From Acidobacteriota bacterium (GTDB lineage Bacteria > Acidobacteriota > Blastocatellia > RBC074), in the NCBI GenBank assembly GCA_019639255.1, contig JAHBSF010000002.1, positions 5,117 to 69,116 of the forward strand: 64,000 bases of DNA, written 5' to 3'. The position numbers and the translations under genes were made by a program. The notes beneath the pieces were generated by a model. It searched no databases and had not been told where the DNA came from. It worked only from the letters and a program-made list of their open reading frames with translations. The stretch's first letter is position 1, and the number at the start of each line of letters is the position of its first letter. Shown piece after piece: positions 11,246 to 50,157 of this stretch.

Positions 11246-14200
11246 TCAGTACAGGAGTTTCAGTGCGAACTGGATCGAGCGCGGTCCGCCGACCTGGTAT
11301 CGTGAGTCGAGTCCTCCGCTTGTGCCGCCGGGGCCGAGTGTGCGGTTGAGCATTTGCAGCGGCCGTCCGAAGGTTGCCGTCGAATTAAGCACGCTGACCG
11401 GGTCGCCGAAATTCGGATGGTTGAAGAGATTGAAAAATTCCGTGCGGAACTGCAAACGCAACGCTTCGCCGAGTCTGAACTCCCGGCGCAGCGAGAAGTC
11501 GTACTGCTGTACGCCGAAGGCCCGCAGCGCGTTGCGTCCGAGCGTGCCCTGCCGGCCGCGCGGAGCTTCGCTGAAGGCCTCGCGATTGATCCGGCGTCCG
11601 CCCGGCGCCGTGGGGTCGTCGATGTAAATCGGCGCGCCGAGGACGAGATCCGGCCGTCGCACATTGGCGGTTATGTTGAGCGGATCGGGCGTCGTAGAGA
11701 CTACATTGACGGGCGTCCCGGTGCGCATCCTGACTATTGCGTCTATGCCCCAGCCGCCGAGCAGTTGTTTGCCGAACGGATTTGAAACCGGCGCCGGCAG
11801 GTTATAGCTGAGGCTGCCGATGAAATTATGGCGAACATCGAAGTTGGCCGGAGCGCGATCGAGTCTTGCATCGACCGGGAAGCCGGGCAGTCCGTCGGGC
11901 GGCAGCCCGGCTATGGTTTCATCCGAAACATCGTCGATGGCTTTCGACCAGGTATACGAAGTAAGCGCCGAAAATCCGCGCGCCAGTCTGCGCTGAAACT
12001 GCAATTGCAGCGCGTGGTAATCCGAAGTCGATTCGCTGCGCGTGACGAAGACCTGGGCGGTGTTGGAAAAAAGCGCCGGATTGATGGTCACGATCGCCGG
12101 AATTCCCTGCGCTGTATTGGCCGCCTGATTGCGCAAAAGAGTCGAGCGCAGCAATCCGCGCCCGATTGCGCCGACGTAAGACGCCGTTACGGTCTGACTG
12201 CGCCCAAGAGGGTTTTCCACCGCTACATTCCATTGCCGCGTTTCCGGCAGATCCAGATTTCGGTCGAAGACGAAAAACTGCGCCGAATAGGGCGGCGCGG
12301 TGTTGAACGGCAGCGGTGCGAGTGCAGAAGCAGGCGCCGGGAACTCGAGGTTTGTCGTCGTACGCACGGAATTGAACGGGAAGCTGCTGTAGCCGCGCAG
12401 AGCCGTGCCTGCGCCCAGGTCATAGAAGAGGCCGAACCCGGCGCGCACTACCGCGCCGCCGATCGCTTTCCACGATTCCGGCAGTTGATAGGAAACTCCC
12501 GCGCGCGGAGCAAAGTTGTCGTACCGCGTTTCCCACTGGCGAGTATTCGGCGGCGCCAGCGTCGCCGTCAGCGGATTGTCCAACCCCTCGATAGAATACG
12601 GCAGTACGCTGCTTGAAGGCGGCGGATTGAGTTCCCAGCGCAGGCCGTAGGTCAGTGTCAGTCGCGGCGCCAGCCGCCAGGTATCCTGCGCAAAGGCCGA
12701 GAAATTGTGGAAGAGAAAATCATTGACCGGGGCGAGCGCCTGCACCTGAAGCGACTGCGCCAGTCCGTCGGTTCGGAAAGTGCCGGCCGCAGCGTTGTAA
12801 AAACTGTAGGAATAGCCGAGCGAACGAGCTGCGGCGCGCGGAGTCAGCCGGCGGTAATCGACGCCGGCTTTCAGCTCGTGATTGCCTGCAACGAGTGTAA
12901 AGGTATCGACGAGGTTTATCTGCCGCTGGTCATTGCCGAGGGAGCGGCCCTGCGTCAGGCTGGTTACGAATGAACTCGCCGAGATGATGTTGAGGCTGAC
13001 CGAGGTGTTTTCGCGCGAGACGCCTGCGGGAAAGATCAGGCTGTCCGGAGGCAGCACCGCGCCGTCTACGGGCAGGCCGACGAATTCAAATCGTCCCTGG
13101 GTGCGGCTCCGGTTGATGCGCGCGTCGTTGATTGCGCGCGGCGAAATCGTCCAGGTCGCACCGGCCGTCAGCGTTTCGGAATCCAGATCGAACTGATTGT
13201 TCTGACTTGCGAAGGCGCGCGTAGTGTTGCTCGAAGGCGCCCGGTTGAAACGCGCAAAAACGTTGAGAGCGCTTCCAAAACGATGATCGATGCGCGTGCT
13301 GACGGCGTCGAACTGCGAAGGCAGCGAAACGGTCAGAAAGTAACGGCCCGTGTTGGCCGGATCACCGGGCTGCGAAGCAGCGTTGGGGAATGGAAACGCG
13401 TTGAGCACGTCGCGCAGCGGCCCCGTGACGGTTTGCCGGACCTCGCGCGACGGAACGATCCAGAACCGCGTTCCGAATTGCGGTTGCTTCAACCGCAGTC
13501 CCTCATACGAAAAGAAGAAAAATGTCCGGTCGCGGCCGTCGTAGCCGAATGGGCCGAAGAGTTTTTTCGGCAGCCGTATGGGGCCGCCGAGGAAGCCGCC
13601 GAACTGGTTCTGGCGCAGCGGCAGGCGTTTGACGCCGTCGCGGTTGGCGAACCAGTCGTTGGCGTCGAGCGCTTCGTTGCGGAAGTAGTCGAAGACGCCG
13701 CCCGTCAACCGGTTTTTGCCCGATCGCGTCGTGAGTGAAATCTGCGCGCCGGGCGAGCGGCCGAATTCGGGCGCATAGGTCGAGGTCTGTATGCGGAACT
13801 CTTCGAGCGCGTCGATCGAAACCAGGCTGTTGGTGCCGCCCAGAACCGTGAGGCCGGGCAGCGTGCCTCCGGCCTGCTGGTAACCCTGAGCGGAGGTGCT
13901 CGCGGCGACGTTGGCGCTGACGCCGTCGACGATGAAGATGTTGGCGTTGGTGCGTTGCCCGTTGACGCTGAACTGTCCCGGCGAATTGATGTTCGGTTTG
14001 GCCAGCACTACGCCGGGCGCGAGTTCGATCAGCGACTGAAAACTGCGGCCGTTAAGCGGCAGGTTTTCGACCGATTGCCGGTCTACAAGCGCGCCGACGG
14101 CAGGCGAATCTTTCTCGACGAGCGAGGAGCGTCCCTCGATCACGACCGTTTCTTCGATCTGTCCGGGACTGAGGGCGAAATTCTCGGCGACGTTGCCGCC

Positions 14201-17888: not shown

Positions 17889-18064
17889 CAGTACTCTGCC
17901 AATTAAGTTCTATGAGTTTTTCAGCCGCGAAGCGGCGAAAGATCTGTAGCCCAGGGCGGCGAGCCCTGGGTGAGTGTAGAGAAGCGGCGCCAGCCCCGGA
18001 GGGGCGGAAGATCTTTCGCCTCTTCGCGGCTGAAAAATTCTAAGAACTTTGTTTACCGAGTACT
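17889..18064. repeat. Palindromic element family 2, copy 2 (shorter, ~175 bp; diverged left tip, core in opposite orientation to copy 1)
   Basis: 'GAGTTTTTCAGCCGCGAAGCGGCGAAAGATCTGTAGCCC ... GGCGGAAGATCTTTCGCCTCTTCGCGGCTGAAAAATTCTAAGAACTTTGTTTACCGAGTACT'. Confidence 0.6.
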
Positions 18065-24925: not shown

Positions 24926-26278
24926 TCATTGATATAAGAACGTCCGCGCCATGCCGATCAAGCCGCCGCCTATGACGACCCAGAGCACATCCACCTTGAA
25001 CCGGTAGAGCGCAATAAACGCCGCCAGACTCAGCACAACGGCGAACCATTGCGTGCCGCCTGCCCAACCGCGCGGCCAGATCACCGCGGCGCCAAACACC
25101 AGCGCCAGATTCAGCACCACGCCAACCACTGCCGCAGTGATGCCGCTGAGCGCGCCTGTCAAATGGCGATTGCCGCGTAAAGACTCGATATATGGCGCGC
25201 CCAGAAAAATAAACAGGAAGCTCGGCAGAAAGGTGGCGTAGGTCGTAACAAACGCGCCGATGACGCCGCTCAAGGCGGGCGACATTCCCTGCGGATGATT
25301 CCACGCCGCCATAAAACCGACGAACTGCAAGACCATAATCAGCGGCCCCGGCGTCGTTTCAGCGAGCGCCAAACCGTCCACCGCTTGCTGTTGCGACAAC
25401 CAGCCGTAATTGCCGACCGCCGCCTGTGTGACGTAGGTGAGCACTGCATAGGCGCCGCCAAAGGTTACAAGCGCCGCTTGTGTGAAGAATCGATATTCCT
25501 GAGCGTGTAAACCGCCCCAACCGCTCCAGGCGATGAGTGTAATAAACGGCAAGACCCACAGCGTGATTCCAACCGCCAGCGTTCGCAATGCTCGCATGCG
25601 AGAAGGCTGCGTATGCGCGGGCGGCGGGGTCTCGACGGCAATGACGCTCACGGTTTTACCCTTTTCCTGGTTTGACAGCCCCTGCGGCCAGAAGCGTGAC
25701 AGCGCCAATCCGGCCAGCCCCGCCGCCATTACAAGCAGGGGAAACGGAACGTGAAGGAAATAAATCCCAACGAAAGCCAGCGGCGCGATCATAAAATGTG
25801 CTCGCCGCGACAACGCCCGTTTCCCGACTTTAAGCACCGCTTCGACAACAATGGCAACCACTACGGGCTTGAACCCGGTCAGGACGCCTGCTACCGCCGC
25901 GACATTGCCATACGCGGCGTAAATGTACGACAGCGCCAGCAAAATGAAGATTGACGGAAGGACAAAAAACGCTCCAGCTACAATGCCGCCCGGTATGCGA
26001 TGCAACAACCAGCCGATGTAAATCGCCAGTTGCTGCGCTTCAGGGCCCGGCAGCAACATGCAGTAATTGAGCGCATGCAGAAATCGTTCCTCGCTGACCC
26101 ATCGCCGCCGCTCGACCAGTTCGCGGTGCATAATCGCAATCTGCCCAGCCGGGCCGCCGAAACTGATGAAACCCAGCTTTACCCAAAAACGAAAGGCTTC
26201 GGCAAATGATATTCGGCGAGCACCTGGGTGTGCATCGATAGTCTCGCTTGAACTGCCTGTGAATACCGAATGTTTCAT
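24926..26278 (-). CDS. chrA: Chromate ion transporter (CHR family)
   Basis: '[53 protein letters not shown]' is the ChrA signature. The start was set at 'MKHSVF' (codon 17). Confidence 0.85.
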
Positions 26279-26471
26279 CGAGAACAATCTGCGGAGTACA
26301 CCGAACACGCGAAAGTTGATGAACAAAGATTGTTTTTCCCGGGATTTCCGTTTCTTTCGCGTATTCCGTGTTTATGTTTTATTCCCAAAACGAGAGACTT
26401 GTCCTTCGTTTTCCTGTACGACGAACCTGAATTCTTTGTTGCCGGCTTCGGTCAGACTGACCGTACTGGGC

Positions 26472-26570
26472 AAAGAGAGATAACGGAACAAACGAAATGT
26501 AACGAAAATTATGGAGAATCTGAATATTTCCGTAGTTTTCGTTGCATTTCGTTTGTTCCGTTGTTTACGT
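26472..26570. repeat. Hairpin repeat family 1, copy B (degenerate right arm) in the divergent chrA / regulator intergenic region
   Basis: 'CAAAGAGAGATAACGGAACAAACGAAATGTAACGAAAATTATGGAGAATC-TGAATATTT-CCGTAGTTTTCGTTGCATTTCGTTTGTTCCGTTGTTTACG'. Confidence 0.65.
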
Positions 26571-26624: not shown

Positions 26625-29600
26625 ATGTTCCCCGGCTATACAGTTACCCAAGAAATATCGTCGGATTCGGTATATTCCCGGTACAGGTTGTATCGGGCGC
26701 GCAGGGTTGCGGACGGGCAACCGGTTCTGATCAAGGCAGCGAAACCGAAGAGCAACGGGCCGCACGGCGATGAATTGCTCGCGCGAGAGTACAATATTCT
26801 ACACAGCCTCAATGTTGAAAGCGTACCGAAGGTAATCGAGTTGCTGCACACCCCTGCCGGCGTCCATCTCGTGATCTGCGATCCGGGAGGACTTCCCCTG
26901 TGCACCGAACTTGCCCCGGGCCGCATTACGCTCGATCAGTTTCTGCGCCTCGCCGTTCGCATAACATCTGCTGTTGGAGAGATTCATCGCCGCCGAATCG
27001 TGCTTCGCTGCATAAATCCGGAGGGAGTATTTGTCGATCCGTCCCAAGACCGCATATCGATCGTGGATATGAGCCTCGCAAATCCGATTGCGCCTCCGGC
27101 ATCTGATCTGCCCTCTGAAGACGACCTTCAGGGCCTCCTCGGTTACTGCGCGCCGGAACTTACGGGCAGAATGAACCGCGCCGTCGACTTCAGTTCCGAT
27201 CTGTACTCGCTTGGCGTACTCTTCTACGAACTGATTACCGGACGGCTGCCATTCGAATCTTCGGATCCGATTGAACTCATCCACAGGCATCTGGCGGTAA
27301 CGCCTCTTGAGCCCGCCGCTGTCGATCCGCACATCCCCGAACAGTTGTCGCGGCTTGTAATGAAGATGCTTGCGAAAGCCCCGGAGGATCGATATCAGAC
27401 CGCTGCTGGTTTATACGCCGACATCGAAACCTGCACCCGCGATTGGATGCACAGCGGCCGGATTCGCCGATTTGCGCTCGGCGCCTGCGACGTTGCGGAT
27501 TCTTTTTCCGCACCGGAAAAACTGTACGGCAGGCAGCGCGAAGCAGAAGATCTGACAACAGCACTGAATCGGGCGTGCTCCGGACGCACCACAATTGTTC
27601 TGGTGCAGGGCGAATCCGGAATAGGCAAAACATCGCTCATACTGCAGCTTTGCAAACCCATGATCCGGCGCCGCGGCTATTTTATTACCGGAAAGTTCGA
27701 TCAGGTTTGTTCGGCGACACCCTACGGTGTATTGATCCGCGCATTGCGGGAGCTGGTTTCGCAGCTTCTAGGCGAAAGCGAAGCTCAATTAGCGACGTGG
27801 CGAGCGAGATTATCAGAAGTGTTGGGAGCTAACGCAGGCGCGATTGCCGAAGTGTTGCCGGAAATCGAATTGATCCTCGGCAAACAACCGCCCTCGCCTT
27901 CGGTGGCGCCCGCTGAGGCGCTGAATCGGTTTCAATCGGTGTTCCATAACTTAATCGCTGCTGTAGCGCGGCCTGAACATCCGCTGGTTGTATTCCTCGA
28001 CGATCTGCAATGGGCCGACGCCGGAACTCTGGAACTCATCCAAACGATGCTGACGCGAAATTCTACATTATCGCTTCTGCTGATCGGTGCATTTCGTGAC
28101 GGCGAAACCGACGACGATCACCCGCTTTCGCGTGTGCTTGCGACGATGGAATCAGCAGGAATCGCAATTGAACGTATTATTCCCGCCCCGCTCAATCGTG
28201 AGGATATGGAACGGATGCTTGCCGAGACGCTCCGCTGCAACGCCGAACAATCAGCATCGCTTGCGTCGTACTTGCTCGACAAGACCGGAGGCAATCCTTT
28301 TTTTGTGACGCAGTTGCTGAAATCGTTGAGCGAAGAAGGGCGGCTTCGCTTCGATCAGATGCGCCGGCAATGGGTATATCGAATCGACGAGGAAACGGAT
28401 GAGTCATCCGGGAATGAGGCGGTCGACCTGATTACACGCAGGTTGATTCGCTTGTCCGACGACGCAAGGCACGCGTTGACGGCGGCTTCCCTGATGGGAA
28501 ATTCATTCGATGCAGCAACCATAGCGATTGTTACCGATCGCCCCTCGGATGTTACTGTAAAGGCGCTGCTGGAAGCGGTGGAGCAAACATTCCTCATCCA
28601 ATCGCAGGAGCAAACATTCTCTTTCCTCCACGATCAGGTGCAACTCGCGGCATACTCGCTCATTCCGGAACGCGATCGACCATCGGTCCATCTCGCCGTC
28701 GGGCGACTTCTTCAAACACGCGGCGAGCCTGTTTCCGAAGACGATCATTTGTTCGATGTAGTCCATCACCTGAACATTGGAGCCGGGTTGATCGAGGATC
28801 ACGCCGAGAGGCTGGCGCTTGCACGCCTCAATCTCTCCGCCGGCGGAAAAGCACTGCGCGCCACGGCGTTCGATGCGGCGCGAGGTTACTTTACGGCAGG
28901 TGCACGGCTGATACAGGAAGACGAATGGACCACTGAGTACGAACTTGCATTTGCTCTTCATCACGGCGCGGCCGAATGCAGTTATTTATGCAGGGATTTC
29001 GATTCCGCCGATTCGGCGTTCGGCGAACTTATCAAGCGCGCCCGCACGAATACCGATCGAGCAAGCATATTCAACCTTCGCATAGTGCAGTACGAATACC
29101 AATCGCGGTATGAAGACGCAATAAATTGCGCGCGCACGGCGCTCGAACCGTTCGGCGTGCATTTGCCGGAAACCGGTTCGGTGCAGCAGGAGCTCGAAAG
29201 CGAAATGGAATCGATCGATCTGCTGCTCGGCGGCCGCAGAATAGCAGACCTCGCCGACCTTCCTTCGGCAACCCAACCGGAAATCAGGATGGTTATGAAA
29301 CTGCTGACCGCAACGTGGCCGTCGGCCTATATATCCGGAAGGCAGGCTCTCACTCGCCTGCTTTCCGCAACAATCGTCAGGTTATCGCTTGAATACGGAA
29401 ACGCGGAAGAATCCGCCTACGGCTACGTTACGCACGCAATCACTCTTGGACCGGTTCGGGAGGATTACCACGCAGCCTACGAGTTCGGGCTCCTTGCGCT
29501 GGAGGTGAATGAACGCTTCAACGACAGACGGCTGCGTGCAAAGGTGTTCCAGCAGTTCAATGCCCACGTAAACCTTTGGCGTCGCCCGCTTGAAACCTGT

Positions 29601-32600
29601 ATCGGATACGCACGCGAAGCCTGCCGCAGCGGATTGGAGAACGGGGATTTCACCTACGGCGTTTACGGCGCATTCACCGAATCGTGGGCGGGGCTGCTGA
29701 GTGCACCGAATCTCGCAGTCTTCATACGCGACTATGCCCCGAACACGGAGCTTTTCAGGAGATTGAATGCTTCGGCGATCGCCGACGCACAGGAGTTGAT
29801 CCTGAACTGGGCGCGCGCGCTTCGCGGCGAAACCGGATCACCCGCAAGCCTGTCGCACGGAGATTTTGACGAATCCCATTACATTGAAAAGTACCGCGAC
29901 GCCCCCTTCATCGCCGTCTATTACATCGTCGCGCGAATGCATCTGTTTTATCTGCACGGCGATATGGACTCCGCGCGGGATATGGCGCATCGCGGCGACG
30001 AAATAATTCACCATCTGAAAGGGACGATCTGGCCCGTAGAATTCCGGTTCTGGAAATCCCTGATCGCAGCAGCAGACCACACAAGCCGTGATGAAAAGAA
30101 CGGAGGTCCATATCACGAGGACCTGGATGAGGCGTGCAGATCTTTCGCCGTACTTGCAGCGAACTGCCCGGAAAACTTCTCGTGCCAGTCGCTCATACTG
30201 GAAGCCGAACGCGAAAGACTTGCGGGCAATGCGGCGCCGGCGATGAATCTTTATGAACGGGCCATCGAGTATGCCGCACATACCGGTTCAATCCGTTATC
30301 GCGCGCTCGCGCTTGAACTGTGTGCACGGCTTCAGGCGGCGGAAGGCCGCAGAAATGTTGCAGCTCTGTTTGCCGCTGAAGCGCGCGCCTGCTATCTGGC
30401 CTGGGGCGCGGTAACGAAATGGGAGCAGTTGGGAAGCCTATATCCGGAGGCGGTACGAACACACGAGGGGGCGACCGCATACGGACAATGGCGAGCAGGA
30501 TTGCCGGGGCAGGTAAAACCGGAAGGTAGTGACGGCAACAGGGCCCTTGATCACTTAAGCGTTCTGAAGGCGGCCCAGGCGATTGCCGGTGAAATGGAGC
30601 CCGACAAACTGCTGGCAAAGCTTACAAGAATTGTTACCGAAAATGCAGGAGCTACACGCGGATGCCTGTTGCTTGAATCGGCGAATGGCGCCCGCCTGCA
30701 CGCTGAATGCAGGACCGACAGCCGGGCTGATATTGACCGGGTAATTCTGCACCGGGCGGCGCCCCTGGCTGATTTGCAGGATCTTCCCGCCAGGCTGATC
30801 AACTACGTCAGACGTTCCGGAGAAAGCATCGTGCTGGAGGACGCCGCACTCGATGAGCGCTACGGCGATGAACCCCATTTTGCCCGCAACGGGGTCCGCT
30901 CGATTATGTGCGTTCCGGTAATAAATCAGGGCAGGCTCGTGGGCGTAATTTATCTTGAGAACAACAAGACCGCGAGTGCTTTTACGTCGAACCGGATATC
31001 GGTATGCGGAGTACTTGCATCGCAGGCTGCCGTATCGCTCGAAAACTCCCGTCTATACGACGAAATGAAATCGGGCAGGGAAACCCTGAAATCGATTATG
31101 GAGGGCACGGCTGCTGTCACGGGCGGCGATTTTTTTGCCTCACTGGTTCGACATCTGGCGTCGGCGATTCCGGTCAAAATCGCATTCGTCACCGAATGCG
31201 CAAACTCCGAACGCTCGCGCGCTCGCACGGTGGCATTCTGGGACGGCAAGGGTCTGGCGGAAAATTTTGAGTATGAAGTGCGGCAAACTACATGCGAAAA
31301 GGTCTACGCGGGCGAAACCTGCTTCTATGCCGACGAACTCCAGAAGCTGTTCCCCCAAGAAAAAGCGCTCACTGTGCTCGACGCTCAAAGCTACATCGGA
31401 CTTCCCATATTCGATTCGCAACACGAAGTCATAGGACACCTTGCCGTAATCGACGATGAACCGATGAACGAGCCGAGGGGAATGGAAATCCTGAAAATAT
31501 TTGCAGCACGCGCCGGGGCTGAACTCGAACGTATGGCGGCCGAGGCCGGTTTGAGGCGAGCAATGGCGGAAATCGAACAGTTAAAGAATCGACTGCATGC
31601 GGAGAATATTTACCTGCAGGAAGAAATCCGCTGCGAGCACAACTTTGATGAAATCGTGGGCACAAGCCCCGCGCTCATTGAAGTATTGCAACAGGTGGAA
31701 CGCGCCGCACCCACCGATGCCACGGTCCTCATACTGGGTGAAACCGGCGTCGGAAAGGAACTCATAGCGCGTGCAATACACGATCGCAGCCCGCGCAGGA
31801 CGCGGCCGCTGGTGAAGGTCAACTGCGGGGCCATTTCGTCGGGACTGGTCGAGAGCGAACTGTTCGGACACGTTAAGGGCGCATTCACCGGAGCGCTCGA
31901 CAAACGTACGGGCAGGTTTGAACTCGCGAACGGCGGCACCATCTTCCTCGATGAAGTCGGCGAACTCCCGCTCGAAGCCCAGGTCAAACTGCTGCGCGTG
32001 CTGCAGGAAGGCGAATTCGAACCCGTAGGCAGCAGCAAAACCGTCCGGGTCGATGTGCGCGTCATTGCGGCTACCAACCGGAACCTGGATGAAGAAGTCC
32101 GGACCGGACGCTTCCGCACCGATCTGTTTTACCGACTGAATGTGCTGCCGATAAATACTCCGCCGCTGCGCAGCCGGCGCTCCGACATTCCGCAGCTCGC
32201 AATGTTCTTCGCCGCACGCTTCGCACGACGGTTCGGCCGCGCAATAGATTCCATATCTCAGGAAACTGTTGACCGTATGGTGAACTACCACTGGCCGGGC
32301 AACATACGCGAACTTCAAAACCTGATCGAACGCGCCGTAATTCTCAGTACGGGTTCCGTACTTTCGATTTCGCCCGAACTCATCCCACTATCCCCGCCCC
32401 ATCAGGAGTACACAATCGACACACACCGCTCCTACAGCCTCCCCCAAATCCATATTTCTCCCTCGCCGGCAACCGAAAAGTACAATTCCCCTCCCCCCAC
32501 GCTCGTTGAACTGCAACGCCAACACATACTCAATGTTCTCAACCAGACCAAATGGGTAATTGAAGGCAAACACGGCGCCGCCAGACTCCTCGACCTTCAC

Positions 32601-32666
32601 CCCAATACCCTTCGCAGCAAATTGAAAAAAATGGGCATCAAACGCCCAACCTCACCCGCTTCCTGA
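26625..32666 (+). CDS. Giant (2013 aa) signalling protein: degenerate Ser/Thr-protein-kinase-like domain + AAA16/STAND P-loop NTPase + helical (TPR-like) region + GAF domains + sigma-54 interaction (AAA+) domain + Fis-type HTH
   Basis: A continuous ORF. Kinase-fold landmarks run through aa 1-270 ('GYCAPE', 'LGVLFYELITGRLPF'), but 'HRRRIVLRCINPEG' and 'IVDMSLA' replace HRDLKPEN and DFG. The Walker A is 'VQGESGIGKTSL'. GAF-like blocks follow ('CVPVINQGRLVGVIYLEN', 'YIGLPIFDSQHEVIGHLAV'). The EBP motifs are 'ILGETGVGKE', 'ELFGHVKGAFTGA' and 'RVIAATNRNL'. The C-terminal HTH is 'AARLLDLHPNTLRSKLKKMGI'. Confidence 0.85.
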   Translation: MFPGYTVTQEISSDSVYSRYRLYRARRVADGQPVLIKAAKPKSNGPHGDELLAREYNILHSLNVESVPKVIELLHTPAGVHLVICDPGGLPLCTELAPGRITLDQFLRLAVRITSAVGEIHRRRIVLRCINPEGVFVDPSQDRISIVDMSLANPIAPPASDLPSEDDLQGLLGYCAPELTGRMNRAVDFSSDLYSLGVLFYELITGRLPFESSDPIELIHRHLAVTPLEPAAVDPHIPEQLSRLVMKMLAKAPEDRYQTAAGLYADIETCTRDWMHSGRIRRFALGACDVADSFSAPEKLYGRQREAEDLTTALNRACSGRTTIVLVQGESGIGKTSLILQLCKPMIRRRGYFITGKFDQVCSATPYGVLIRALRELVSQLLGESEAQLATWRARLSEVLGANAGAIAEVLPEIELILGKQPPSPSVAPAEALNRFQSVFHNLIAAVARPEHPLVVFLDDLQWADAGTLELIQTMLTRNSTLSLLLIGAFRDGETDDDHPLSRVLATMESAGIAIERIIPAPLNREDMERMLAETLRCNAEQSASLASYLLDKTGGNPFFVTQLLKSLSEEGRLRFDQMRRQWVYRIDEETDESSGNEAVDLITRRLIRLSDDARHALTAASLMGNSFDAATIAIVTDRPSDVTVKALLEAVEQTFLIQSQEQTFSFLHDQVQLAAYSLIPERDRPSVHLAVGRLLQTRGEPVSEDDHLFDVVHHLNIGAGLIEDHAERLALARLNLSAGGKALRATAFDAARGYFTAGARLIQEDEWTTEYELAFALHHGAAECSYLCRDFDSADSAFGELIKRARTNTDRASIFNLRIVQYEYQSRYEDAINCARTALEPFGVHLPETGSVQQELESEMESIDLLLGGRRIADLADLPSATQPEIRMVMKLLTATWPSAYISGRQALTRLLSATIVRLSLEYGNAEESAYGYVTHAITLGPVREDYHAAYEFGLLALEVNERFNDRRLRAKVFQQFNAHVNLWRRPLETCIGYAREACRSGLENGDFTYGVYGAFTESWAGLLSAPNLAVFIRDYAPNTELFRRLNASAIADAQELILNWARALRGETGSPASLSHGDFDESHYIEKYRDAPFIAVYYIVARMHLFYLHGDMDSARDMAHRGDEIIHHLKGTIWPVEFRFWKSLIAAADHTSRDEKNGGPYHEDLDEACRSFAVLAANCPENFSCQSLILEAERERLAGNAAPAMNLYERAIEYAAHTGSIRYRALALELCARLQAAEGRRNVAALFAAEARACYLAWGAVTKWEQLGSLYPEAVRTHEGATAYGQWRAGLPGQVKPEGSDGNRALDHLSVLKAAQAIAGEMEPDKLLAKLTRIVTENAGATRGCLLLESANGARLHAECRTDSRADIDRVILHRAAPLADLQDLPARLINYVRRSGESIVLEDAALDERYGDEPHFARNGVRSIMCVPVINQGRLVGVIYLENNKTASAFTSNRISVCGVLASQAAVSLENSRLYDEMKSGRETLKSIMEGTAAVTGGDFFASLVRHLASAIPVKIAFVTECANSERSRARTVAFWDGKGLAENFEYEVRQTTCEKVYAGETCFYADELQKLFPQEKALTVLDAQSYIGLPIFDSQHEVIGHLAVIDDEPMNEPRGMEILKIFAARAGAELERMAAEAGLRRAMAEIEQLKNRLHAENIYLQEEIRCEHNFDEIVGTSPALIEVLQQVERAAPTDATVLILGETGVGKELIARAIHDRSPRRTRPLVKVNCGAISSGLVESELFGHVKGAFTGALDKRTGRFELANGGTIFLDEVGELPLEAQVKLLRVLQEGEFEPVGSSKTVRVDVRVIAATNRNLDEEVRTGRFRTDLFYRLNVLPINTPPLRSRRSDIPQLAMFFAARFARRFGRAIDSISQETVDRMVNYHWPGNIRELQNLIERAVILSTGSVLSISPELIPLSPPHQEYTIDTHRSYSLPQIHISPSPATEKYNSPPPTLVELQRQHILNVLNQTKWVIEGKHGAARLLDLHPNTLRSKLKKMGIKRPTSPAS

Positions 32667-32708: not shown

Positions 32709-32818
32709 GGGAGAGAGATAACAAAACAAACGAAATAAGACGGAAACTACGGAAATATTCAACCTTTCCGTTCTTTCCGTTTTATTTCGTTTGTTCCGTT
32801 ATCTCTCTCACGAAATGT
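32709..32818. repeat. Hairpin repeat family 1, copy C, 43 bp downstream of the giant regulator stop
   Basis: 'GGAGAGAGATAACAAAACAAACGAAATAAGACGGAAACTACGGAAATATTCAAC-CTTTCCGTTCTTTCCGTTTTATTTCGTTTGTTCCGTTATCTCTCTC'. Confidence 0.7.
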
Positions 32819-33110
32819 CGCGGCCACGAAATTTGTATGGCTCAATAGCCCTCGACAATTCGTGGGAGACGGATTTGAGATGATGGGTAGCAGTGTGTAT
32901 TTCATTGCAAATGCATAGTTTATGAGTAGCGGTGAGGAGATCGGGTCAACGGCACAAGCGTTGCCGTTGTGAGTGAGAAGGCAGAAAGGAGGGGAAAAGG
33001 CGTTGCGAATAAACGAGGAGTATATAGAGGAGCGGGCGACGAGGTAGCAGCTTGAGAGAAATCTGGTGAATCAATCGCACCGGATCTAATGATGCCGGAA
33101 AGGGAGAGTT

Positions 33111-33656
33111 ATGTTCAATTCACAAAATATGAATGAGTTTGAAGACGGGGCCCTGCCTTTGAGGAACCTGCTGTACGGGACCGCGAGGCGCGCACTCGGG
33201 AATCCTGCCGAGGCCGAAGACGTAGTGCAGGAAACCTACCTGCAAGCGTGGAAATCGTTCCACCGCTTTCAGCCCGGAACCGATTTGAGGGCCTGGATGT
33301 TCAAGATTCTCTTTCACGTCATACAGCATCACAGGCGCAAGTCCTGGAGGCTTGTGACGGCAGGGGAGGACGAAAGCGGGATCTTTAAATCGATTGCGTA
33401 TGAACCTCCGGCCGCGCAGGAACTGCGCGACGAAGATTTCATCGCCGCTCTTGATCAGGTGCCGCAATATTTTCGCTCGGTAATCCTGCTTGCCGACGTG
33501 TATGAATATTCCTACAAGGAAGTCTCCCGAGCACTGGGCATACCATTAGGGACGGTGATGTCCAGGCTCAGTCGCGGCAGGCAAATGCTGCGCCCTCATC
33601 TTGCACGCTTTTCATCCCCGGCGGTATCAGACGTTCGGGCGCCGCTTGCGGCGTAG
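33111..33656 (+). CDS. ECF-subfamily RNA polymerase sigma-70 factor
   Basis: Region 2 is 'AEDVVQETYLQAWKSFHRF...LRAWMFKILFHV'. Region 4 is 'YSYKEVSRALGIPLGTVMSRLSRGRQML'. No anti-sigma ORF lies adjacent. Confidence 0.8.
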   Translation: MFNSQNMNEFEDGALPLRNLLYGTARRALGNPAEAEDVVQETYLQAWKSFHRFQPGTDLRAWMFKILFHVIQHHRRKSWRLVTAGEDESGIFKSIAYEPPAAQELRDEDFIAALDQVPQYFRSVILLADVYEYSYKEVSRALGIPLGTVMSRLSRGRQMLRPHLARFSSPAVSDVRAPLAA

Positions 33657-38025: not shown

Positions 38026-38125
38026 GGAAGAGATAACGGAACAGACGAAAATAGACGAAAACCACGGAAAAGTTGAATATTTCCGTAATTTTCGTCTTTT
38101 TTCGTTTGTTCCGTTATCTCTCTTC
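38026..38125. repeat. Hairpin repeat family 1, copy E, at the convergent junction of hydrolase paralog 2 and coxD
   Basis: 'GAAGAGATAACGGAACAGACGAAAATAGACGAAAACCACGGAAAAG-TTGAATATTTCCG-TAATTTTCGTCTTTTTTCGTTTGTTCCGTTATCTCTCTTC'. Confidence 0.7.
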
Positions 38126-38460: not shown

Positions 38461-39153
38461 TCAGTGCCCTCCCAGGTGAAACCCGAGCAGGTACAGCAGC
38501 GGGAAAAGGAAAATCCACACGATATCGACGAAGTGCCAGTACAATCCGCCGAGTTCAATGGGCGCGTGATACTCCGGTGAATACTTTCCGCGCCACGCAA
38601 AATAAATAAGCACGAGCAACATCCCCGCGCCCACAACCATGTGCAGCGCGTGCAATCCGGTCATCGCAAAATAAAGCCAGAGAAAAATCCGCGCCTGATC
38701 CGCCAGTTGCGGATCGTGTCCCGGCTCGTGCGTCCAGTCGTAAAAGCCGACTGCCGGAAAAAGATGATGCTCGAATTTGTGCTCGTATTCGACAGCCTTT
38801 ACGCCCAGAAATACGCTCCCGAGTATGAGCGTGAGGACCAGGTACACAATCAGCATCTTCTGTTTGCCGGTCTGCGCGCAATATACCGACATCGCCATGG
38901 TCAGACTGCTGAGTATGAGGACCACGGTGTTGAAGCCGCCCAGGTAGACATCCAGTGTATTGCTGGCGGCTTCGAAACCGGCCGGGTATTTGGCGCGGTA
39001 GATGATGTAGGCAAGAAACAGCCCGCCGAAGAACATAATTTCGGTGAGCAGGAAAACCCACATCCCGATCGTGCCCGCTTCGCGCTGTTGCTCCATCGTA
39101 TCGAAATGGTGCTTGAGCGCCGGGTGGTGTTTGATCGTGTGACTTTCAGCCAA
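38461..39153 (-). CDS. coxC: Cytochrome c oxidase subunit III
   Basis: '[24 protein letters not shown]' and '[21 protein letters not shown]' are the subunit III signatures. Confidence 0.85.
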
Positions 39154-39227
39154 GGTTTTTCTCCTGTTGCCCGCGAATCTTAAATAACAACCGGTAAAGA
39201 TCCGCCGGGGCCTCTTTGGCGAATTGT

Positions 39228-40895
<1,668 letters not shown>

Positions 40896-40936
40896 AATGC
40901 ACCCCTGTCGCTCTGAATCGCCTCTGTTGATTAGGA

Positions 40937-42843
<1,907 letters not shown>

Positions 42844-42844
<1 letters not shown>

Positions 42845-43296
42845 TATTTCCCCTTGGCTGCCGCTGCCGTCGGCGAAGGCACGGGCATCCCCTTCTCAAG
42901 GACTATCTTTTTGGCTTCCTCTATGGGAATACGAACGACGCCCGTCCCCTTGTCGACCCAACTGTAGGAGGTCAGGGCGGCCTGCTCCTGTTCACGGTAC
43001 AGTTTCATTTCATCGAGAGGCAGGACTTCGCTGCCCGGCGCACCCTGCAGTCTCGGCATCGGCGGCAGACGCCGCACCCCCGGCGGGTTTACGCGCGAAG
43101 CCGGAGGCAGTTCGGCCTGTTCCTCCTGGCCTTCGAGAAAGTTCGTATAGTATTTCATCGCCACGAAAATGACGATCGTCGATACGGTCAGCACGACGAG
43201 AAACTTCACGAGCCCGCCGATACTGACGTCGCTCATCTCGTGACCCGGATCCGAATGTTTATCGTTGTCGTGATTCATCTTTGTTCCATCCAGCAT
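42844..43296 (-). CDS. Small membrane-anchored protein between actF and coxB (possible ActG-like accessory subunit)
   Basis: 150 aa with one TM helix ('[21 protein letters not shown]'). It is translationally coupled to coxB. The ActG assignment is speculative. Confidence 0.5.
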
Positions 43297-43326
43297 CGAA
43301 CGCGGCCCGAACGCATCAGAAATGCA

Positions 43327-44514
43327 TCAATGATGACTTGCGGCGACAAGCGCCTGCTCGAATTGCGGATCTTTTACCGGAAGAAGCTCCCGGCTCTGCA
43401 GATTCCTGAAGAAAAACCAGAGCCATATTCCGCCAATGCCGATGGGCGCAGTGGCATACATCCACAAACCGCCCACGTCGGTCTGCTTGAATTCCGGAGC
43501 TACGAGCCAGACAATATCCAGCACCCTCATCACAAGCAGCAAACCCGCAACGATCACCAGCTTTCGCGCGTTTCGCTTGAGTCCGCGCGAAAGCAGGATC
43601 GAAAACGGCAATATGAAATGAAAAACAAGCAGCGCCCAGCTCAACGGCTTCCACTCATTGCTGAACCGGCGCAGATACCACGGAATCTCTTCCGGCAGGT
43701 TTCCCGACCATATGATCACAAGCTGCGAATACGAGAAGTACGCCCAAAGCATTATGAGCGCAAACAGCAGCTTGCCGAGATCGTGGAAGTGGCCCGAGTT
43801 GTATACGTGGTTCATCGGCTCGCGATGCCACAGGCGCGTAGCGATCACTATCGTAAACGCGATGGAGGAAATTCCCTGACCCGCGATTACAAGCAGCCCG
43901 TAGATGGTCGAGAACCAGTGCGGATCGAGCGACATCACCCAGTCGAATGCGGCGAAGCTCATCGTCAATCCGTAGATAAGAACGCCCGGTCCGCTCAGAT
44001 CCGCTAGCCTCTGCCTGAACGAATGATTTCCCGTATCGTCGTGCTGTTTGGCCCACTTCGCGAGAAATGACGCCAAAAGCGCCCATACCGCGAAATAAAA
44101 CACCGCTCTGATGAGGAAAAACGTCACGTTCAGATACGGCTCCTTCTGCTGCAGTATCGGATCTTTGGCGACATCCTCAAGGTGAGTCCAGTGATACAGG
44201 CTGTGCATCCCCACGACTACGGGGATAAAGAGCAATGCGACGATCGGAAATATCGTGCGGGCTGAAGCCTCGAATATGCGCCGGGTTGCCACGCCCCACG
44301 AGCCGCCCGTCAGGTACTGGATCATGAGGAATCCGAGGCTGCCGAGCGTAATGCCGAGCACGAAGATGAATCCGACGAGCCACGCCCTGTAAAACTGATC
44401 GTGGTCGACGAAGTATCCGGCCAGGGTGGCAATCAATCCGATGACGCCGACGACGAGCGCGCGCTGCTGCCAGCCCGAGACGGCCGGGGGTGCGTTGTAT
44501 GTCGTGTTCGCCAT
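43327..44514 (-). CDS. actF: Alternative Complex III subunit ActF (NrfD/PsrC-like polytopic membrane subunit)
   Basis: 395 aa with ~10 TM helices. Its position and NrfD-like profile fit ActF. Confidence 0.78.
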   Translation of the reverse strand: MANTTYNAPPAVSGWQQRALVVGVIGLIATLAGYFVDHDQFYRAWLVGFIFVLGITLGSLGFLMIQYLTGGSWGVATRRIFEASARTIFPIVALLFIPVVVGMHSLYHWTHLEDVAKDPILQQKEPYLNVTFFLIRAVFYFAVWALLASFLAKWAKQHDDTGNHSFRQRLADLSGPGVLIYGLTMSFAAFDWVMSLDPHWFSTIYGLLVIAGQGISSIAFTIVIATRLWHREPMNHVYNSGHFHDLGKLLFALIMLWAYFSYSQLVIIWSGNLPEEIPWYLRRFSNEWKPLSWALLVFHFILPFSILLSRGLKRNARKLVIVAGLLLVMRVLDIVWLVAPEFKQTDVGGLWMYATAPIGIGGIWLWFFFRNLQSRELLPVKDPQFEQALVAASHH

Positions 44515-45134
44515 TACTGGGTTTGACCTCCTTGCGGCGCTGCTGCATCGGCGGCTTCTAGTTTGGCGCGTTCAGCCGCCGGAACGTCTTCGATCTTTGC
44601 GTTATGGCTCACCTGAAGGACGCGTATGTAGGCCGCCACCTTCCAGCGATCTTCAACCGAGAGTTTGTCGGAATAACTCGCCATCGCGCCGAAGCCGTTT
44701 GTCATGACATCGTAGAAATAACTCGCCGGCGAGTTGCGCAACCGTTCTTCGTGATACGAAGGCGGCCGCTTGAATCCGCGCTGTACAATCATGCCGTTGC
44801 CGTCGCCGAGTTTGCTGTGGCACGGAGCGCAGTTGATGTTGAAGCGGTTCTCGCCGCGAGCGAGAACCTCGGCGGTAATCGCAAACGGAAATTCGCTTTT
44901 TGCAGCGCCTGCTTCTGCAACCGGAGCCGAAACAGCCAGCGTTCCCCGCGCTACGGCGCCTTCGGGCGGAACGCGGTCGGCGCCCTCGCGGTAGGTCTTG
45001 AGTTTGGGCTGATCGTGCATATCCTGGCGGCACGCGCCTGCCGTCAGCGACAGTGAAGCAAGGAGCAGGGCGCCGATCGTTTTTTTGAGCGGCGCGCGGC
45101 GAAAACCCGTCATGGGCGGTTTATTTTTCGACAT
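44514..45134 (-). CDS. actE: Alternative Complex III subunit ActE (monoheme cytochrome c lipoprotein)
   Basis: It has a lipobox 'LTAGAC' and a single 'CAPCH' heme site. Confidence 0.8.
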   Translation of the reverse strand: MSKNKPPMTGFRRAPLKKTIGALLLASLSLTAGACRQDMHDQPKLKTYREGADRVPPEGAVARGTLAVSAPVAEAGAAKSEFPFAITAEVLARGENRFNINCAPCHSKLGDGNGMIVQRGFKRPPSYHEERLRNSPASYFYDVMTNGFGAMASYSDKLSVEDRWKVAAYIRVLQVSHNAKIEDVPAAERAKLEAADAAAPQGGQTQ

Positions 45135-45666
45135 CGGTCACCTCATTGGCTCCGAGGCTTTCGAGGAACTTCCTCGTTTCGCCGAGATCGAACTTCGCAT
45201 CCTCCGCCTCTATGCACAGAAAGAAATGCGTGCGCGAAGCGAGTTCAAAACGCGGCGCGTTAAAAACAGGATGATAGGGTCGCGGCAATCCGTTGAGGAG
45301 TATCATTCCGAGCACCGCTCCGAAAGCCGCAAGCAGCACCGTCATCTCGAACGTGACCGGAACGAACGCCGGCCAACTGATGAGCGGCCGCCCGCCTACA
45401 TTCAGAGGATACTCGATGGCTGAAGTCCATATTTGCAGACCAAGCCCTGCAAACAGGCCCGCCAGCCCCCCCACAAGCACAATCAACGGAACCCGGTTGG
45501 AGTGAAAGCCGATGGCTTCGGAGAGTTCCTCGATCGGATACGGCGAATATGCGTCCATTTTTCGGTATCCGGCCTCGTGCGCTTTTTTCGCTGCAACGAC
45601 TACGGCCGTGGGGTTGTCGAACTCCGCCATCAGGCCGTAAATGTTCGATTCTTTGTTGACGTTCAT
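45121..45666 (-). CDS. actD: Alternative Complex III subunit ActD (DUF3341)
   Basis: The ActD family shows 'YGLMAEFDNPTAVVVAAKKAHEAGYRKMDAYSPYPIEEL' plus 2 TM helices. Confidence 0.8.
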   Translation of the reverse strand: MNVNKESNIYGLMAEFDNPTAVVVAAKKAHEAGYRKMDAYSPYPIEELSEAIGFHSNRVPLIVLVGGLAGLFAGLGLQIWTSAIEYPLNVGGRPLISWPAFVPVTFEMTVLLAAFGAVLGMILLNGLPRPYHPVFNAPRFELASRTHFFLCIEAEDAKFDLGETRKFLESLGANEVTDVEK

Positions 45667-47112
45667 GCCGGGCTCTCCTGCGGACCGCCCGCGGGCGGCA
45701 TCGCCGGTTTATCGGGCGAAGCATGCGCCTCTGATTTGAGCTTCGCTTCAGGAACCATGGTCCGCATCTCGTAGATTGAAATCATCGGGAGTATGCGGAT
45801 GAACAGGAACATCAGCGTCAGGAAGAAACCGATCGTTCCGAAAAACATCGTGAAGTCGAATACCGTCGGCGTATACATCGTCCATGCCGACGGCAGGAAG
45901 TCGCGGTGCAGGCTCGTGACGATGATCACGAACCGCTCCAGCCACATTCCCACGTTGATGAACATCGAAATCACAAAAAGCATTACCGTGCTCTCGCGGT
46001 ACTTCTTGATCCACAGCAATTGCGGAACCGCAATATTGCAAAGAATCAACAGCCAGTAGATGTACCAGTACGGTCCCGTAGTCCGGTTCTTGTACATATA
46101 GGCTTCATATGTGTTGGCGCTGTACCAGGCGAAAAACGCCTCCATCGCATACCCGTAACCTACGATGAGGCCCGTGGCCAGCATGACCTTGGCCATGTTC
46201 CGGAGGTGGCGATTGGTGATGAAGTCGTCAAGGCCGTAGTATTTGCGAATGGGAATGCCGAGCGTCAATACCATTGCAAAACCCGCATAAATGGCGCCGG
46301 CGACGAAGTAAGGCGGAAATATCGTCGCGTGCCAGCCCGGTATGATTCCGATCGAGAAGTCGAACGACACTATGGTGTGCACGGAAAGCACCAGGGGCGT
46401 CGAGAGGCCCGCGAGCAACAGGTACGCAGTTTCATAGCGCGACCAGTGGCGCGTCGAGCCGCGCCAGCCGAGCGCGAGCATTCCGTAAATGACTTTGCGT
46501 ATCTTGCTCGTCGCGCGGTCGCGCAGCGTTGCCAGATCCGGGATCAGACCTATGAACCAGAACAGGGCCGAAACCGTGGCGTAGGTTGATACGGCGAATA
46601 CGTCCCACATCAGCGGGCTGCGGAAGTTCGGCCACATCCCCATCGTGTTGGGATATGGGAAGAGCCAGTAATCGAGCCAGGGACGACCGGTATGCAGCGC
46701 CGGGAACAGGCCCGCGCAGGCTACGGCAAACAGCGTCATGGCTTCGGCAAACCGGTTGATCGACGTTCTCCAAGACTGGCGCATCAGCAGCAGAATCGCC
46801 GAAATCAGCGTTCCGGCGTGGCCGATTCCGATCCACCATACGAAATTGATGATGTCGAACGCCCAGCCTACGGTGGTGTTGTTGCCCCAGATTCCGATGC
46901 CCTTGAACACGAGGTAAGTAATCGTGTTGAGCATCATCAGCATGCCGAGAAACGACAACCCGAAGCCGACCATCCATCCGCGCTTGGTGCCCTTGCGCAG
47001 CACAATCGAGGCTATCTTCTCGGTTACGCTTGCAAAGGTATGCCCCGGCCCTATGACCGGAGGCGGCCCATACGCCGCGTTGCTTGCTTCCTGCCCGGTC
47101 TGCTTCATTGCA

Positions 47113-47120: not shown

Positions 47121-50157
<3,037 letters not shown>

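Follow-up and report, generated by a model that had tools for sequence, protein, structure and literature searches.

Within a 64-kb stretch of DNA from an Acidobacteriota metagenome-assembled genome (MAG), hereafter the window, along which all positions are counted, we analyzed a gene for a 2013-amino acid (aa) protein together with its downstream neighbor, which encodes an extracytoplasmic function (ECF) sigma factor. The first gene is a single open reading frame (ORF) whose translation contains no internal stop; it starts with ATG, preceded by a GGGAGG ribosome-binding site. Its product is 100% identical to MCW5967605.1 of a Blastocatellales MAG, named 'sigma 54-interacting transcriptional regulator' by NCBI, and identical copies are present on 4 contigs. 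Pfam assigns to it, in this order, Pkinase, AAA_16, a stretch with no match, two GAF domains, Sigma54_activat, AAA_lid_14 and HTH_8. The ECF sigma gene begins 445 nt 3' of this activator gene and carries the accession directly after it. The surrounding window is an ordinary acidobacterial chromosome, with TonB-dependent receptors, an alternative complex III and cytochrome oxidase cluster and an HrpB helicase.

The first-pass annotation of this DNA had read the ORF as a one-piece fusion of a pseudokinase, an AAA_16/STAND NTPase, a helical part, GAF-like modules, a sigma-54 AAA+ domain and a Fis-type helix-turn-helix (HTH). Pfam, an AlphaFold2 model and Foldseek bear out this reading: the profile scan supports both the kinase-like and the sigma-54 domains and resolves the GAF-like modules as two GAF domains. 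The coordinates of all features are collected in the table.

Table. Features of the window discussed in the text (positions along the 64-kb stretch).
Feature	Position	Strand	Basis or remarks
Activator gene, pseudokinase-STAND-GAF-GAF-sigma-54 type by prediction (MCW5967605.1)	26625..32666	+	Open ORF, Pfam, NCBI identity
Predicted pseudokinase domain, aa 1-277	26625..27455	+	Pfam Pkinase, column counts, AlphaFold2 and Foldseek
STAND-type P-loop NTPase (AAA_16), aa 299-520	27519..28184	+	Pfam, invariant motifs, AlphaFold2 model
Winged-helix/arm with GNPFF (aa 525-700), then all-alpha TPR-like solenoid (aa ~702-1300)	28197..30524	+	AlphaFold2, Foldseek
GAF domain 1, aa 1326-1472	30600..31040	+	Pfam GAF, 8.2e-25
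GAF domain 2, aa 1488-1634	31086..31526	+	Pfam GAF, 26.5 bits
Sigma-54 AAA+ and lid, aa 1677-1915	31653..32369	+	Sigma54_activat 1.4e-75; AAA_lid_14 2.7e-22
Fis-type HTH_8, aa 1960-2002	32502..32630	+	Pfam HTH_8, 25.9 bits, cut-off 22
Candidate enhancer (upstream activating sequence), two degenerate CCACGAA-NN-TTCGTGG copies	32808..32865	.	Block conserved with locus L001
Candidate sigma-54 -24/-12 element, cGGCACaagcgTTGC	32950..32964	+	9/10 consensus positions, GG and GC kept
STAS remnant	33003..33087	+	TTG start, 14 codons, TAG at 33045-33047; alignment to L001
ECF sigma gene, 181 aa (MCW5967606.1)	33111..33656	+	Sigma70_r2 and r4_2 (Pfam)
Dispersed palindromic element	~24712; 26482-26562; 32711-32809; ~34720; 38035-38115; 54888-54966; 58583-58663; 61962-62042		REP/MITE-like
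Chromate transporter (ChrA) gene	24926-26326	-	Divergent, upstream of the activator gene
Acido-Lenti-1 RNA (RF01687)	5348-5394	+	46.9 bits
Acido-Lenti-1 RNA (RF01687)	5219-5265	-	37.4 bits
Acido-Lenti-1 RNA (RF01687)	17923-17970	-	37.5 bits
Respiratory cluster	38461-50157	-	Alternative complex III, then cytochrome oxidase subunits

The C-terminal part of the protein has the features of a bacterial enhancer-binding protein (bEBP), namely a sigma-54 domain with a GAFTGA loop and intact ATPase motifs. Sigma54_activat (PF00158) spans aa 1677-1843 and covers model positions 1-167 of 168, AAA_lid_14 follows at aa 1849-1915, and the motifs GETGVGKE, KGAFTGA, IFLDEVGE, ATNR, FRTDLFYRL and WPGNIRELQN can all be read. 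An alignment of 84 sequences shows conservation of at least 90% for GAFTGA, Walker A and B, the R-finger region and sensor II, and HTH_8 scores above its cut-off. To judge from these motifs, the output module is complete and intact, as had been claimed for the AAA+ domain with its 'KGAFTGA' loop. The nearest solved chain to the AAA+ module is NifA (9qq6_C, 289 bits), and the NCBIfam nifA model gives 430 bits over aa 1510-2006; this score and those of FhlA (390 bits) and NorR (371 bits) fall below the equivalog cut-offs of 529, 830 and 476 bits, respectively.

A conserved linker, LKNRLxAENxYLQEEIR, joins GAF2 to the AAA+ domain. Within GAF2, C1525, C1557, C1566 and H1605 (window 31197-31439) are near-invariant, being kept in 74-79 of 83 homologs, and this Cys3-His pattern occurs in all Blastocatellia-type loci as well as in a split relative of the system, locus L012, described below. 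The set suggests a metal or redox ligand or cofactor, which we offer only as a lead. The same set was also seen in a stand-alone PAS-GAF protein of Variovorax ginsengisoli (L016, 14977-16158, minus strand), whose gene adjoins a histidine-kinase-type gene of the CP1 family introduced below.

Further towards the N-terminus, AAA_16 (PF13191) matches aa 299-487 with an E value of 1.2e-42. The Walker A motif GESGIGKTS, earlier described as being of the AAA16/MalT type, is present in the translation, Walker B reads VVFLDDLQW, and G329, G332, G334, K335, D459, D460 and a GNPFF motif are invariant in the 84 sequences. Pfam gave weak nSTAND hits below cut-off; no Pfam family matched aa 490-1320, and a search of aa 289-1320 against PDB sequences returned nothing at E<=1. 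An AlphaFold2 model of aa 1-1200 based on the 84-sequence alignment (predicted local distance difference test, pLDDT, 86; predicted template modelling score, pTM, 0.56) was used instead of a single-sequence model of the same residues, which was unusable (pLDDT 38). In the alignment-based model, a kinase fold at aa 1-277 is followed by an alpha/beta P-loop domain at aa 300-520 (strands 323-328, 352-357, 454-459, 484-490 and 515-518), a helical/winged-helix arm at aa 525-700 and an all-alpha solenoid at aa 702-1199, the pLDDT values of arm and solenoid being mostly 85-96. The helical region, put at ~700 aa in the first-pass annotation, amounts to an alpha-solenoid of ~800 aa, with aa 490-1199 lying within the model. 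Foldseek matched the modelled structure to 6mfv_A, a 'STAND protein with a tetratricopeptide repeat' of the PH0952 type, with E 1.7e-11 over 785 columns. The region thus has the make-up of a STAND protein, in which a P-loop nucleotide-binding oligomerization domain (NOD) with Walker A and B precedes a helical arm/winged helix and a domain resembling tetratricopeptide repeats (TPR). Arm and solenoid presumably serve as a sensor or oligomerization scaffold.

The N-terminal domain adopts a Hanks-type fold: Pkinase matches aa 23-259 (E 1.7e-23), and Foldseek aligned this part of the AlphaFold2 model to PknB (5u94) with a template modelling score of 0.85. The segment 'IHRRRIVLRCINPEG' aligns to the canonical 'LHxxxIIHRDLKPEN', so that HRD becomes LRC, with Cys in place of the catalytic Asp, and the catalytic-loop Lys and Asn become Asn and Gly. 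The Gly-rich loop is missing, with no GxGxxG found across the family of 113 full-length homologs on which the column counts were made, and the YxSPEQT segment reads YCAPELT. Compared with an active Hanks-type kinase, the window protein therefore lacks the HRD Asp, the loop Lys and Asn and the Gly-rich loop, while it keeps the fold, the VAIK Lys (K37), the alphaC Glu (E55) and, at a DFG position that reads 'VDMS', the Mg-binding Asp (D148). An earlier statement that both the HRD Asp and the DFG motif are replaced thus holds for the former but only in part for the latter, where the Asp is retained. Among the 113 homologs, the HRD-Asp position is occupied by N (42), S (14), H (14), D (13) or G (11), the catalytic-loop Lys position by N (73) or S (20), and the catalytic Asn position by S (48), N (25) or G (19). 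The VAIK Lys (97 of 113), the alphaC Glu (101) and the DFG Asp (92) are conserved, which makes nucleotide binding plausible.

Relatives with other outputs were obtained from a scan of genome contigs with the N-terminal 1320 aa. Among the matches listed, 72 of 80 loci were devoid of a sigma-54 domain; as these are mostly cyanobacterial relatives, the set gives no census of the sigma-54 type. L016, the one other-output locus examined by Pfam, has a histidine kinase at its end, and the cyanobacterial relatives listed are presumed to be of this kind. In these relatives the catalytic loop reads HKDINPSN, and the Asp is kept in 69 of the 72 listed matches vs. 13 of the 113 homologs of the window protein, so that degeneration goes with the sigma-54/ECF-linked clade. 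In the split relative L012 the kinase is already degenerate, with HKA and TGF. As far as its residues tell, the kinase domain of the window protein is a catalytically dead, clade-specific pseudokinase.

Conservation of the fusion in related genomes, which the first-pass annotation had proposed as a check, was found throughout: every one of the best 120 cluster representatives exceeds 1800 bits, and 113 of them share the domain order at a length of at least 1830 aa. The full-length homologs, more than 110 in number and with 44-84% identity to the window protein, were recovered from NCBI, JGI, ENA and Logan assemblies; they come from Blastocatellia, Acidobacteriia, Nitrospirota, Gemmatimonadota, 'Deltaproteobacteria' and Entotheonellia, and a subgroup of ~2100 aa adds PAS domains. 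Two relatives are broken: the AAA+ domain of L011 is frameshifted, and L013 is split into ORFs of 1300 and 812 aa.

The architecture had been called possibly undescribed, which proved incorrect; it is uncharacterized but already catalogued. NCBI names such proteins sigma-54-interacting regulators, and the window protein fits the published description of the CP1 kinase family, a kinase-like domain with a COG3899-type ATPase, an assignment made by that description and not with the authors' classifier. CP1 kinases are described as invariably joined to a COG3899 ATPase, with FhlA or PAS frequently present as well (bioRxiv 10.1101/2025.01.12.632604; PMC12599244 section 10). About 40% of them are reported to be pseudokinases, their function is almost entirely unstudied, and both papers describe the family from sequence only; the word 'sigma' has 0 occurrences in them, so that sigma-54, promoters and ECF factors are not treated (bioRxiv 10.1101/2025.01.12.632604; PMC12599244). 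In the literature covered, to which subscription journals do not belong, these catalogue papers were the only ones found on kinase- or STAND-fused sigma-54 activators; an earlier mention may exist, for instance in work on myxobacterial kinomes. Likewise, a search covering few subscription journals turned up no account of a bEBP gated by a STAND module or a pseudokinase, of the STAS-ECF cassette described below or of its cis elements.

The ECF sigma factor consists of regions 2 and 4 only (PF04542, 1.7e-16; PF08281, 6.5e-13) and reaches 79 bits with TIGR02937 against a cut-off of 43. No named ECF group scored above cut-off in the NCBIfam equivalog search, and the main text of the ECF classification paper mentions neither sigma-54 nor STAS contexts. 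Although this gene had been taken for an orphan, it has a conserved partner, since all 16 fused-type loci whose flank could be read (the window, L001, L003-L008, L010, L013-L015 and L088-L091) have an ECF sigma gene next to that of the activator. These loci belong to Blastocatellia, Acidobacteriia, Vicinamibacteria, Gemmatimonadales, Nitrospirota and Entotheonellia, and their activators are 40-84% identical. The ECF gene mostly lies directly downstream on the same strand and is convergent in L013 and L014. By tblastn, the ECF proteins show 55-85% identity in L001, L003-L006, L008 and L010 and 30-36% in L013-L015; L007 has a different, longer ECF sigma factor (292 aa), and the ECF genes of L088-L091 were identified by their Pfam domains only. 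No homolog of the window ECF gene or of the STAS gene lay within 10 kb in any of the 72 control loci with other outputs among the matches listed. The window ECF factor keeps an acidic sigma2.2 motif, AEAEDVVQE, which is conserved in 7 loci. The ECF43 group, activated by phosphorylation, does not have the corresponding DAED motif (PMC8999054), and retention of the motif here fits control at the level of transcription.

In 14 of the 16 loci a small gene (78-108 aa) for a STAS protein precedes the ECF gene. In 5 relatives the STAS proteins score 21-30 bits with PF01740/PF13466, and PF01740 exceeds its 22.6-bit cut-off in three. At what we take to be the position of the SpoIIAA phospho-Ser motif DSSG, they read ADHEG, ADLDG, ADRTG or VDREG, and the phosphorylatable Ser is lost; both the motif and its placement are our assumption and not the outcome of an alignment. 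With this Ser absent, partner switching driven by phosphorylation is unlikely. An uncalled STAS-like ORF (MFRIRRILENE...NCPVGVKNML) was also noted at 11640-12000 of the Nitrospirota locus L007, between the activator gene and that for the 292-aa ECF sigma factor; it is preceded by TGGCATagttcCTGT, with GT at -12, and the palindrome there is a different one (TCGAAATATCAACG/CGTTGATATCTCGA).

In the window, compared with the 84%-identical ortholog locus L001, a deletion of ~300 nt covers the rest of the STAS gene and the spacer behind it, leaving the remnant listed in the table, and NCBI annotates no gene between MCW5967605.1 and MCW5967606.1. Conserved between the two loci are the block of palindromes, the promoter, ~95 nt at the start of the STAS gene and the ribosome-binding site of the ECF gene. 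The deletion adjoins a CCGGATC repeat and leaves the ECF ribosome-binding site intact; the predicted sigma-54 transcript would thus consist of a ~135-nt leader followed by the ECF sigma gene.

Several further genes recur near the cassette in loci of distant genomes and are absent from the window, namely those for a GMC oxidoreductase, a two-domain glyoxalase, an SGL/gluconolactonase-like protein, an HbpS-like protein, a cupin, a MIP channel, MGH1/GDE-type glycosidases and a zf-HC2 protein of ~290 aa (L001 12924-17607; L003 2764-5715 and 15121-17838; L005 1-5724 and 13295-18114; L089 11149-13589; L090 1-3868 and 11409-14014; L091 1-3791 and 11267-13261). They are candidates for the ECF regulon. 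A comparison of these genes with the STAS-ECF spacers for a common ECF-type promoter gave no convincing motif, only scattered GGAAC.

A search for a sigma-54 promoter in front of the ECF sigma gene, suggested in the first-pass annotation, yielded a candidate in the window and equivalents far above background in a total of 14 loci, always on the correct strand and between the activator gene and the STAS/ECF genes. The window element has the form cGGCAC-N5-TTGC, with C for T at the first position. Seven spacers (window, L001, L003, L004, L005, L008 and L014) match TGGCAY-N5-TTGC at 9 or more of 10 positions, and TGGCAC-N5-TTGC is perfect in L003 and in L014, where the STAS-ECF pair is inverted and the element lies on the minus strand. 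Matches at 8 of 10 positions were found in L006, L010, L012, L015, L088, L089 and L090. Over 2.8 Mb of control strands, taken from the 72 non-sigma-54 loci among the matches listed, 9/10 matches have a background of 0.017 and 8/10 matches one of 0.175 per kb-strand. In 9 loci, 34-44 nt separate the -12 element from the STAS ATG and contain a GGAG-type ribosome-binding site; the corresponding distance in the window, to the start codon of the STAS remnant, is 38 nt.

In 13 loci the palindrome CCACGAA-NN-TTCGTGG, with up to 3 mismatches allowed, is present once or more at ~50-200 nt upstream of the promoter, usually in two copies 16-51 bp apart; its background is 0.018 per kb over 1.4 Mb. The window copies lie at 32808-32823 (TCACGAAATGTCGCGG) and 32850-32865 (CCTCGACAATTCGTGG), with a half-site, CCACGAAA, at 32824, and better copies occupy the same relative place in 11 other loci. 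Going by sequence and position, the palindromes and the -24/-12 element form the textbook enhancer-promoter layout of a bEBP. No rpoN gene was found in the 64-kb window. In L003, a nearly perfect, MITE-like palindrome of ~220 nt (12100-12330) lies between the activator stop codon and the enhancer sites; the spacer thus tolerates insertions in several genomes.

Taken together, these observations make sigma-54-dependent expression of the neighboring ECF sigma gene under the control of the activator likely, a reading based on sequence comparison against which several points have to be set. Within the window alone, both kinds of element occur at chance level, with 2 matches to the -24/-12 consensus (at most 1 mismatch) vs. 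5.2 expected and 3 palindrome matches vs. 3.9 expected, so that what counts is the position of the elements and their repeated occurrence among loci, some of which are related to each other. Several promoter matches reach 8/10 only, L091 reaches 7/10 and L007 has GT for GC at -12; in L015 and L090 the palindromes differ. The window copy is the most eroded of all, its promoter having C for T, its palindromes 2-3 mismatches and its STAS gene being deleted, and the locus might be decaying. All sequences derive from MAGs or metagenomes, no cultured member having been identified. Finally, the signal, the STAND-driven assembly and the role of the pseudokinase are drawn by analogy with MalT and with NifA/NorR, and our confidence in the details of STAND and GAF gating is much lower than that in the ECF gene as target.

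The split relative L012 (9992-19292, from an Acidobacteriota MAG) offers a second arrangement of the same parts. There, a 2161-aa hybrid kinase with the order Pkinase, AAA_16, two GAF domains (with the CCCH set), HisKA, HATPase_c and REC is followed by an overlapping gene for a 512-aa REC-Sigma54_activat-HTH_8 protein, whose AAA+ domain is 70% identical to that of the window protein. Downstream come 2 palindromes and the element CGGCAT-N5-TTGC, and then the genes for an ECF sigma factor and a zf-HC2 anti-sigma factor. This gene order implies that the same sensor feeds the same kind of output via a phosphorelay. The type of GAF2 and the LKNRLxAENxYLQEEIR linker are common to both systems, and the fused protein can be read, on its domain order, as the same pathway minus the phosphorelay.

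Both the bEBP and the sigma-54-to-ECF cascade are known kinds of system, here with an unusual, conserved input module. The C-terminal 530 residues have the NifA layout also known from FhlA and NorR, that is, a GAF domain, a coiled linker, a sigma-54 AAA+ domain with GAFTGA and HTH_8, and the expected action is the same, with binding to upstream palindromes and ATP-driven remodelling of the sigma-54 holoenzyme. In contrast to those activators, the window protein has ~1300 extra N-terminal residues and a second GAF domain with the Cys3-His set, and its predicted target is an ECF sigma gene rather than nif, hyc or nor. With other CP1 members it shares the kinase-like domain followed by a COG3899/AAA_16 ATPase without a transmembrane segment, FhlA and PAS being frequent in that family, whereas the sigma-54-linked clade has lost the HKD...N signature kept in 69 of the 72 other-output relatives listed. 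As in MalT, PH0952 and PknK, a P-loop NOD with Walker A and B and a GxP-like GNPFF motif is followed by a helical arm and a TPR-like solenoid. MalT oligomerizes and becomes active upon binding of inducer and ATP. Here, however, the output is not a LuxR-type HTH that works on sigma-70 but another ATPase, whose AAA+ ring works on sigma-54, and the window protein matches no solved STAND protein at the sequence level.

Sigma cascades that pass through sigma-54 have precedents in HrpR/HrpS of Pseudomonas syringae, which turn on hrpL, an ECF sigma gene with a sigma-54 promoter (PMC8999054, PMC5263251), and in the Rrp2-RpoN-RpoS cascade of Borreliella (PMC11109971). As in the HrpRS-HrpL system, a bEBP would act here on a sigma-54 promoter from which a further sigma factor, of the ECF type, is made. 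HrpR and HrpS are, however, small, without sensor domains and controlled in trans, in contrast to the fused sensor and the predicted co-transcribed STAS gene of the present system. In ECF43 pairs (EcfP-PknT, EcfK-PknS) the ECF gene likewise adjoins a gene with a Pkinase domain, with no adjacent anti-sigma gene, but here the kinase is degenerate, the acidic sigma2.2 motif is present and the link is predicted to be transcriptional.

We propose the following working of the cassette, which would be self-contained and comprise the activator gene, two palindromes, a -24/-12 promoter, a STAS gene (deleted in the window) and the ECF sigma gene. The activator would be a bEBP in which a sensor of ~1650 residues, made up of the dead kinase, the STAND NTPase with its TPR-like solenoid and two GAF domains, replaces the usual short regulatory domain. 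Dimers of HTH_8 would bind the palindromes, and a signal would be read by the solenoid, the GAF domains or both. ATP at the STAND module may then lead to release or oligomerization, bringing the C-terminal AAA+ domains into an active ring, and STAND-driven oligomerization together with GAF2 could license the formation of this ring. The ring would remodel sigma-54 RNA polymerase at the promoter, and the ECF sigma factor made as a result would redirect transcription to its own regulon. The pseudokinase may act as a scaffold or as an allosteric nucleotide sensor, and feedback of the STAS protein on the activator or on the ECF sigma factor is possible. A bolder version, which we put forward tentatively and consider rather doubtful as a whole, is that this is the first recognized class of sigma-54 activators whose ring assembly is under a STAND switch and a dead kinase, with two oligomerizing ATPases per polypeptide, a portable cassette with its own enhancer, promoter, STAS and ECF genes, a Cys3-His GAF domain as metal or redox sensor and STAS feedback on the activator.

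Activation of the ECF gene has to be weighed against other explanations of the same arrangement. The activator and the ECF gene could stand next to each other owing to a shared regulon or to co-transfer, with the real targets elsewhere and the cis matches non-functional; the chance-level counts within the window and the promoter matches of 8/10 or less would agree with this, and the GMC oxidoreductase, glyoxalase, SGL, HbpS-like and MIP genes that recur nearby could be the true targets. This explanation is unlikely in our view, since it does not account for seven spacers with at least 9/10 matches, against 0.017 per kb-strand, at a fixed distance from the STAS start, for the recurrence of the palindromes in the same spacers, or for the persistence of the layout both in L014, with its inverted STAS-ECF pair and perfect minus-strand element, and in the split system L012. 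The N-terminal domain might instead be an atypical active kinase that controls the ECF sigma factor or the STAS protein by phosphorylation, in the manner of the ECF43-like pairs PknT-EcfP and PknS-EcfK, the sigma-54 domain serving other targets. ECF-Ser/Thr kinase gene pairing is known (PMC8999054; PMC7826278), most of the 113 homologs keep the VAIK Lys (97), the alphaC Glu (101) and the DFG Asp (92), and the HRD Asp is present in 13. We nevertheless regard this as decidedly improbable: the catalytic Asp is gone in ~88% of the homologs, and the loop Lys and Asn and the Gly-rich loop have been lost too, while HKD...N persists in 69 of the 72 other-output relatives listed; the ECF factor has the acidic sigma2.2 motif missing from phospho-activated ECF43; the STAS proteins are without a phosphorylatable Ser at the presumed SpoIIAA-type motif; and the -24/-12 element and palindromes would be left unexplained.

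Two further explanations have far less to recommend them. Defense systems often contain STAND NTPases joined to kinase and effector domains, and this, together with the sub-cut-off nSTAND hits, might point to an anti-phage or conflict protein of the Avs/NLR type. PADLOC gave only generic hits (RtcR-type AAA+ and PD-T4-6 kinase models) and no STAND defense family, the output is a transcription activator with a putative promoter and enhancer of its own and the neighborhood is metabolic and chromosomal, so that we rejected a defense role as very improbable. A mistaken joining of a kinase/STAND gene to a NifA-like gene, during assembly or annotation, is almost certainly not the origin of the 2013-aa ORF. 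Although the source is a MAG and L011 and L013 are frameshifted and split, respectively, the 113 independent cluster representatives of at least 1830 aa, with the same order and similar length, span NCBI, JGI, ENA and Logan, the junction running from GAF2 through LKNRL...YLQEEIR to AAA+ is conserved, and the identical protein recurs on 4 contigs.

If the activator controls the ECF gene as predicted, the cassette constitutes a testable pathway with an activator, a predicted site (CCACGAA-NN-TTCGTGG), a predicted sigma-54 promoter and an ECF output, and would add to HrpRS-HrpL a second, phylogenetically remote example of a sigma-54-to-ECF cascade. Current bEBP models have gating by REC, GAF, PAS or V4R domains or by partners in trans; an AAA+ activator gated by a STAND switch and a pseudokinase would lie outside them. 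Part of the uncharacterized CP1 pseudokinase family would thereby gain a concrete predicted function, and the fused version and the split one, with histidine kinase and REC-containing enhancer-binding protein, form a natural pair for studying the passage from phosphorelay to direct fusion. Acidobacteriota are among the most abundant soil bacteria, and to our knowledge almost nothing is known of their environmental sensing; on the bolder version given above, the cassette would represent a major unstudied route of stress signalling in these and other soil phyla.

Other features of the window were also recorded. A dispersed intergenic palindromic element of ~100 nt (consensus GAGAGATAACGGAACAAACGAAAT...ATTTCGTTTGTTCCGTTATCTCTC), whose 34-45-nt arms show 89-91% complementarity, resembles a repetitive extragenic palindrome (REP) or miniature inverted-repeat transposable element (MITE) and had no match in Rfam; its 17-mer core gave 21 hits vs. 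0.18 expected. Copies lie on both sides of the activator gene, one of them between its stop codon and the enhancer, and also bracket chrA. At the position of chrA, a Dabb-domain gene and an ORF of 135 aa are found in L001, a difference that suggests a local insertion or rearrangement. The three Acido-Lenti-1 RNA matches were scored against a gathering threshold of 37 bits. The respiratory cluster comprises the alternative complex III genes (ActD, NrfD-like and molybdopterin/Fe-S subunits), then COX2 fused to SCO1 and cytochrome c, COX1 and COX3.

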